A stretch of DNA of 43,525 nt, taken from assembly GCF_003334255.1 (NCBI RefSeq), contig NZ_QOWU01000046.1. One strand, written 5' to 3'. This stretch comes from Escherichia coli (lineage in GTDB: Bacteria > Pseudomonadota > Gammaproteobacteria > Enterobacterales > Enterobacteriaceae). The position numbers were made by a program, and so were the translations under genes. Below, piece after piece: positions 4,906 through 5,131 of this stretch; the first letter of the stretch is position 1; each line of letters starts with the position of its first letter. A model generated the notes under the pieces. That model saw only the letters and a list, made by a program, of their open reading frames with translations, ran no database searches and was not told the DNA's origin.

Positions 4906-5131
4906 CATCTTTATTCATTACGCGCGATTTGAATGCAATGTGTTCTACCACTTTATGATCCAGGAAAAGGCGTTTTTCCTCGATTAAACCATGATCCGCG
5001 CCACACTTTTCTCATAAAACTGCTCATTAATCATCAGGAGTTGATCAAAACAGGGGTTCGGCGTATTAAAGTTTGCTAACCTGTCGTACTAATTCAAACA
5101 GGTTGTATGACTAATCAGAAGGGAACCCATT

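Follow-up and report, generated by a model that had tools for sequence, protein, structure and literature searches.

Does the perfect inverted repeat that lies just upstream of uxaB in Escherichia coli mark the operator of this gene, or does control by the hexuronate repressor ExuR reside in other sequences of the same spacer? The window, by which we mean the whole stretch of 43,525 nucleotides that was analysed, belongs to an E. coli chromosome close to K-12, from which it differs by 13 substitutions over 43.5 kb together with a few indels and structural differences. The repeat lies in the 226-bp spacer between the stop codon of dgcF (4903-4905) and the GTG start codon of uxaB (5132). Regulation of uxaB by ExuR here is known biology that has already been described: this control has been known since the 1980s, uxaB is a published member of the ExuR regulon, and ExuR and CRP are given as its known regulators (PMC3688515 supplementary file 9; PMC8612250). 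The gene and the repeat are as follows.

5132-6583, plus strand: uxaB, coding sequence of tagaturonate reductase, the regulated gene.
5078-5104, no strand assigned: inverted repeat AACCTGT-N13-ACAGGTT, from sequence reading and a repeat finder, at -14 to +13 relative to the published transcription start.

The structural differences of the window include its first 77 positions, which are the 3' end of an IS1 element; their bases match the end of the IS1B transposase in BUCT2930, the strain with the complete genome closest to the window. The element directly abuts the ptrR side, and because of this the yneK sequence, present in both K-12 and BUCT2930, is missing from the window. Approximately 87 bp are missing compared to K-12 downstream of uxaB (window ~6905-6909), the same 87 bp being present in BUCT2930, and approximately 468 bp are missing compared to K-12 near window position 25210.

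A preliminary description of the locus had reported a perfect 7-bp repeat with a 13-bp spacer some 30-50 bp upstream of the uxaB start, and this was confirmed, with 7-nt arms at 5078-5084 and 5098-5104 that pair at every position across a spacer of 13 nt, at a measured distance of 28-54 bp before the GTG at 5132. Repeats of this kind are common. A total of 134 perfect 7-bp inverted repeats with a spacer of 0-20 bp were counted in the window, compared to 64 +/- 11 in dinucleotide shuffles, and at least one occurs in approximately 10 % of shuffled 120-bp upstream regions; for the pattern AACCTGT-N13-ACAGGTT itself, with up to two mismatches, the expectation is 0.11 per window. Taken alone, the repeat is statistically weak evidence.

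The upstream regions of 80 orthologous uxaB loci fetched from Enterobacteriaceae were compared, and arm complementarity was counted over 77 promoters (76 orthologues and the window). The arm positions were complementary at all seven pairs in 4 of the 77, at six or more in 9 and at three or fewer in 47, and no compensatory changes between the arms were found among these promoters. The exact pattern AACCTGT-N13-ACAGGTT was seen in only three places, E. coli, E. whittamii and a single Citrobacter amalonaticus, most genera carrying AAGTTAT at the left arm position and either TCAGGCT or CCAGGTT at the right. Bases 5098-5100 of the right arm are variable even inside E. coli and Shigella, and conservation falls to ~0.3 bits in the repeat spacer and the first right-arm bases, just 3' of the palindrome that is described below as O1. 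The preliminary description had itself held that a lack of conservation in orthologous uxaB promoters would speak against an operator, and this is what the orthologues indicate; the comparison with the uxaC-exuT intergenic region that it proposed likewise returned no comparable 7-N13-7 repeat. A dedicated operator of this form, recognised either by ExuR in some extended mode or by a different dimeric regulator whose half-sites lie about two helical turns apart, would account for the perfection of the arms and for the 20 bp between their centres, which places them on the same helix face. However, it is largely refuted by the lack of conservation, with no paired position rescued by compensation, and by its absence from the uxaC-exuT spacer, and we consider it very improbable.

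What an ExuR site should look like can be taken from published work. Sites of the FadR subfamily consist of a TKGT and an ACMA box, with a gap between GT and AC of 3 nt for ExuR and 2 nt for UxuR (PMC4494728), and in K-12 the sites of uxaC, exuT and exuR have the 3-nt form and those of uxuA and uxuR the 2-nt form. The repeat as a unit has 13 nt between GT and AC, which bears out the remark in the preliminary description that it does not match the motif of the family. Words conserved at the uxaB promoter recur in the K-12 uxaC-exuT spacer and in the region upstream of exuR. A first matrix was made from nine sites picked by eye, which carries a risk of circularity, and it was checked by an unbiased k-mer footprint and replaced by a matrix of published sites. 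For the footprint, the uxaC-exuT spacer was fetched from six more genera and E. coli was compared with five distant genera. The top two conserved blocks were AAATTGGTGTGATAACTT near uxaC and AACTTGTCATACAAC near exuT, both of them 17-bp imperfect palindromes of the form AAnTTGT-N3-ACAAnTT and both listed as ExuR sites (PMC4494728 supplementary file 2). The same RegPrecise-derived list gives five E. coli ExuR sites, one each for uxaC, exuT and exuR and two for b1521 (uxaB), namely GGAAGTTGTCTGACATCTTTA and ACAGGTTGTATGACTAATCAG.

The published-site matrix is symmetrised, has 17 columns and draws on 44 distinct ExuR sites of the published list, with those of uxaB left out; these training sites span 8.1 to 22.8 bits on it. 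In a matrix scan, a check that the preliminary description had suggested, the whole window was covered (n=43,509 positions), and four sites around the spacer stood out.

5100-5116, no strand assigned: O2, ExuR operator with the core AGGTTGT ATG ACTAATC, at +9 to +25, listed for b1521 (PMC4494728 supplementary file 2).
5078-5094, no strand assigned: O1, ExuR-type 17-bp palindrome AACCTGT CGT ACTAATT (right half-site ACCAATT in K-12), at -14 to +3, from matrix and conservation.
4895-4911, no strand assigned: O3, distal listed ExuR operator AAGTTGTCTGACATCTT, centred at -189, listed for b1521 as GGAAGTTGTCTGACATCTTTA.
4937-4953, no strand assigned: O4, candidate distal ExuR site AATGTGTTCTACCACTT, 13.05 bits and rank 2 in the window.

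O3 was the best match in the 43.5-kb window on both matrices (18.5-18.7 bits; 18.7 on the published-site matrix), followed by O4 at rank 2, O2 at rank 4 (10.9 bits) and O1 at rank 14 (7.8 bits). O2, O3, O4 and the K-12 version of O1 fall within the score range of the published sites, and the O1 of the window falls just short of it. The Poisson probability of finding four matches of such quality in 237 bp is ~1e-6, and the nine-site matrix and the published-site matrix agree in the overall picture. The arms of the repeat also meet, with a 3-nt spacer, in a perfect FadR-type palindrome AACCTGTGGCACAGGTT within the coding sequence of pqqL (42315-42331). This palindrome reached 11.7 bits on the first matrix and fell outside the top 12 (under 8.7 bits) on the published-site matrix, and it is probably a chance match.

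The suggestion of the preliminary description that the repeat is a candidate ExuR/UxuR operator was right in that ExuR-type sites are located here and wrong in the unit that it chose. The published 21-mer for O2, ACAGGTTGTATGACTAATCAG, occupies window positions 5098-5118 (PMC4494728 supplementary file 2), and the right arm of the repeat is the first seven bases of this 21-mer, that is, two flanking bases and the first five of the O2 core. The left arm coincides with the left half-site of the strongly conserved palindrome O1. Compared to the known ExuR operators of the exu regulon (uxaCA, exuT, exuR and uxaB), the repeat joins pieces of two operators rather than forming one, whereas O1 and O2 each obey the GT-N3-AC rule (CTGT-CGT-ACTA and TTGT-ATG-ACTA, respectively) and overlap the promoter or start of uxaB, a gene of hexuronate catabolism. 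Conservation divides them in the same manner: scores of at least 8 bits were retained by O1 in 76 and by O2 in 53 of the 80 orthologues, and full complementarity of the repeat in only the 4 promoters mentioned above. The centres of O1 and O2 are 22 bp apart in the window, as in 57 loci, and 21 bp apart in 19, a spacing of two helical turns, and the two operators therefore lie on one face of the DNA.

We consider it probable that the repeat is a by-product of two tandem ExuR operators, O1 and O2, which straddle the start of uxaB, and that it is not a functional unit. The arms pair because the outer AAnTT of the ExuR half-site is its own reverse complement. The Escherichia versions of this word, AACCT in O1 and AGGTT in O2, depart from AAnTT at mirror positions and so yield five of the seven pairs; the remaining two GT/AC pairs are fortuitous, the AC of the right arm being two unconstrained bases. 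Extra half-sites near the palindromes of GntR-family regulators have been described (PMC4494728), and the right arm ACAGGTT is similar in that it is close to ACAAnTT and adjoins a full palindrome, which could be cited in favour of the repeat as a dedicated operator. However, the described boxes are found at a distance of 7-12 nt from the centre of the site (PMC4494728), compared to 15 nt for the right arm, and ACAGGTT lacks conservation and is more readily understood as the beginning of the second palindrome, O2.

In O2, TGTATGAC is near-invariant in the aligned orthologues, and the promoter block GG.TGTATGACTAAT (about 5101-5115) is nearly invariant. It speaks against the reading with tandem operators that column conservation in O2 is not correlated with the matrix (rho 0.15). 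O2 may carry an extra constraint, since its central ATG is invariant too.

The placement of O1 and O2 depends upon the transcription start and the promoter element fitted to it.

5092, plus strand: uxaB transcription start (PMC4447067 Table 1).
5074-5082, plus strand: probable extended -10 element TGcTAACCT, from conservation and its fit to the start at 5092.

The two K-12 numberings are separated by what we take to be an offset of 1976 bp, which agrees with reported peak coordinates and was used to map the start to window position 5092. In the older numbering, the experimentally validated start is 1608744 (PMC4447067 Table 1, a secondary table). Across the 76 orthologues the TG, the TAA and the final T of TGcTAACCT are invariant or nearly so, and conservation together with the published start points to a probable extended -10 element, the last 5 bases of which are overlapped by the left arm of the repeat. 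The gap of 9 nt between this proposed -10 and the published start is long, and a simple sigma-70 promoter scan called no promoter at uxaB.

The position of the start also bears upon the possibility that the repeat acts as an RNA hairpin (a leader structure or attenuator) or as a DNA cruciform. A predicted fold of -8.3 kcal/mol (z = -2.1), equalled by only 7 of 200 shuffles, would favour such a structure. However, the fold energy is modest, the left arm would be untranscribed because the published start lies downstream of it, the loop is 13 nt, no U-tract follows the stem, the stem shows no covariation, the terminator scan was empty and no Rfam match was found at an E-value of up to 1. An intrinsic terminator or structured RNA leader was rejected on the terminator scan, the Rfam search and the start position, and we give hardly any credence to a hairpin or cruciform in general.

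On the reading with two tandem operators, ExuR dimers on O1 and O2 would block the binding of RNA polymerase and promoter escape, O1 occupying the -10/start region and O2 the early transcribed region one to two helical turns downstream, and hexuronate-derived inducers would release ExuR from both. The placement of O1 and O2 over the start is a classic repressor arrangement.

Binding of O1 by ExuR is suggested here by its sequence and its conservation. An alternative is that only O2 and O3 are ExuR sites, that O1 is unbound and conserved as an extended -10 and initiation region, and that the repeat is a coincidence. O1 overlaps the -10 and start, so promoter constraint could explain part of its conservation, and an invariant TGnTAAnnT lies just upstream of O1 and overlaps it. 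The E. coli ExuR entries do not include O1 (PMC4494728 supplementary file 2), and neither do, in the part of that file considered here, the uxaB entries for Citrobacter, E. fergusonii, Klebsiella and Shigella flexneri. Furthermore, the O1 of the window scores below every training site, just under the weakest (8.1 bits). However, one of three near-invariant promoter blocks, TG.TAA..T.T...ACCAAT (5074-5093), extends beyond the -10 element to an invariant ACCAAT at -4 to +2, for which there is no known promoter role. The conservation of O1 has the pattern of half-site, variable triplet and half-site, with CGT, TGG, TAC, CAC, TAG and others in the centre, and its columns follow the information content of the matrix (rho 0.52, P 0.03). 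In the 76 orthologues O1 occupies a fixed place, -54 to -56 relative to the start codon, and scores 10-18 bits (median 12.4), and the O1 of one of them (locus L058) is identical at 17/17 positions to the published uxaC operator. We therefore regard the alternative of an unbound O1 as unlikely.

The low score of O1 in the window reflects a single base.

5090, no strand assigned: private C>T change at O1 position 13, at -2 relative to the transcription start; C in K-12 and BUCT2930.

The C at this position is invariant in the 76 orthologous promoters and falls in the invariant ACCAAT box of O1. Its change to T lowers O1 from 12.3 bits, the score of the K-12 allele, which would be rank 3 of the 43,509 window positions, to 7.8 bits. 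A 70-bp query around 5090 had no exact match among 5,396 complete E. coli genomes. The T may weaken the operator, may be a private change of no effect, or may stem from a sequencing error. It is possible, and we propose it only tentatively, that O1 is a genuine ExuR operator on the -10 and start and that the C>T change is a natural operator-down allele which partly derepresses uxaB. If so, it would resemble the operator-constitutive mutants that a 1983 paper on exu-operator genetics reportedly isolated, as indicated by its title.

At the far end of the spacer, O3 overlaps the dgcF stop codon (4903-4905), and O4 lies 42 bp from it, centred near -147. O4 is absent from the E. coli ExuR entries (PMC4494728 supplementary file 2), and its rank and resemblance to the listed sites suggest that it is a further ExuR site. 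Among the orthologous uxaB loci, O3 is restricted to Escherichia; counterparts of O4 were found in other Escherichia loci (L001, L002 and L072), and the O3/O4 pair is confined to this genus, apart from one weak site in the C. amalonaticus group. These Escherichia-specific sites at -189 and -147 would strengthen repression, perhaps by looping. Between the distal and the proximal ExuR-type sites there is an A/T-rich hairpin, ATCCAGGAAAA-ggcgt-TTTTCCTCGAT, at 4958-4984, which is without a T-tract and was not called by the terminator scan.

Repression through proximal and distal sites is well known from lac O1/O2/O3 and gal OE/OI. The uxaB promoter is similar in that its proximal sites cover the promoter and its auxiliary sites lie 140-200 bp away, but the distal-proximal spacings (183 and 141 bp) do not correspond to whole helical turns and looping by ExuR is only proposed.

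The most conserved part of the promoter belongs to none of the four ExuR-type sites.

5041-5060, no strand assigned: most conserved promoter block TTGATCAAAACAGGGGTTCG, about -51 to -32, from the ortholog comparison.

Its TTGATCAAAACAGGG (5041-5055) is found in all 80 orthologues, including Franconibacter and Siccibacter, which lack O1, and the block is a candidate site for an activator or a second repressor. In most genera it reads AAAACAGGGTTTCA (the Citrobacter and Klebsiella type), which is identical at 13 of 14 positions to the KdgR box of K-12 kdgT, AAAACAGCGTTTCA, and a KdgR matrix gave 14-17 bits in about half of the orthologues. The E. coli version is AAAACAGGGGTTCG, and in E. coli the block GGGGTTCG reached 7.6 bits on the same matrix. 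The block thus appears to resemble a KdgR box in most orthologues and to be degenerate in E. coli; no link between KdgR and uxaB was found in a literature search. The invariant TTGATC in the block was explained neither by KdgR nor by CRP/FNR in the matrix and consensus comparisons.

An FNR ChIP peak has been reported at uxaB (PMC3688515). In 4881-5131, no match of at least 7/10 to the FNR core TTGAT-N4-ATCAA was found, and the best matches to the CRP core TGTGA-N6-TCACA (7/10) lie at 4990-5005, outside the repeat, and at 5104-5119, in O2, the latter sharing only base 5104 with the repeat. The repeat was rejected as a CRP or FNR site, as its arms resemble neither consensus.

Of the four uxaB sites, O2 and O3 appear in the published list of exu regulon operators under b1521, and O1 and O4, unlisted for E. 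coli, share with the known operators the 17-bp architecture, the GT-N3-AC spacing and the score range. The operators of UxuR, a paralogous GntR/FadR repressor, at the uxuAB and uxuR promoters have half-sites of the same TTGGT/ACCAA type as the uxaB sites. However, they have 2 nt between GT and AC, whereas all four uxaB sites have 3 nt and are of the ExuR type. UxuR and ExuR are said to bind one another's sites interchangeably (PMC11806353).

In summary, annotation of the inverted repeat upstream of uxaB as an operator is not warranted: the real units are 17-bp GT-N3-AC palindromes. The significance beyond annotation is small, as two of the four sites are already in published lists. The corrected map of the promoter nevertheless includes the conserved O1 and the distal O4, both of which the published E. 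coli entries apparently lack, and the unique base change in the O1 of the strain represented by the window could alter the repression of uxaB.
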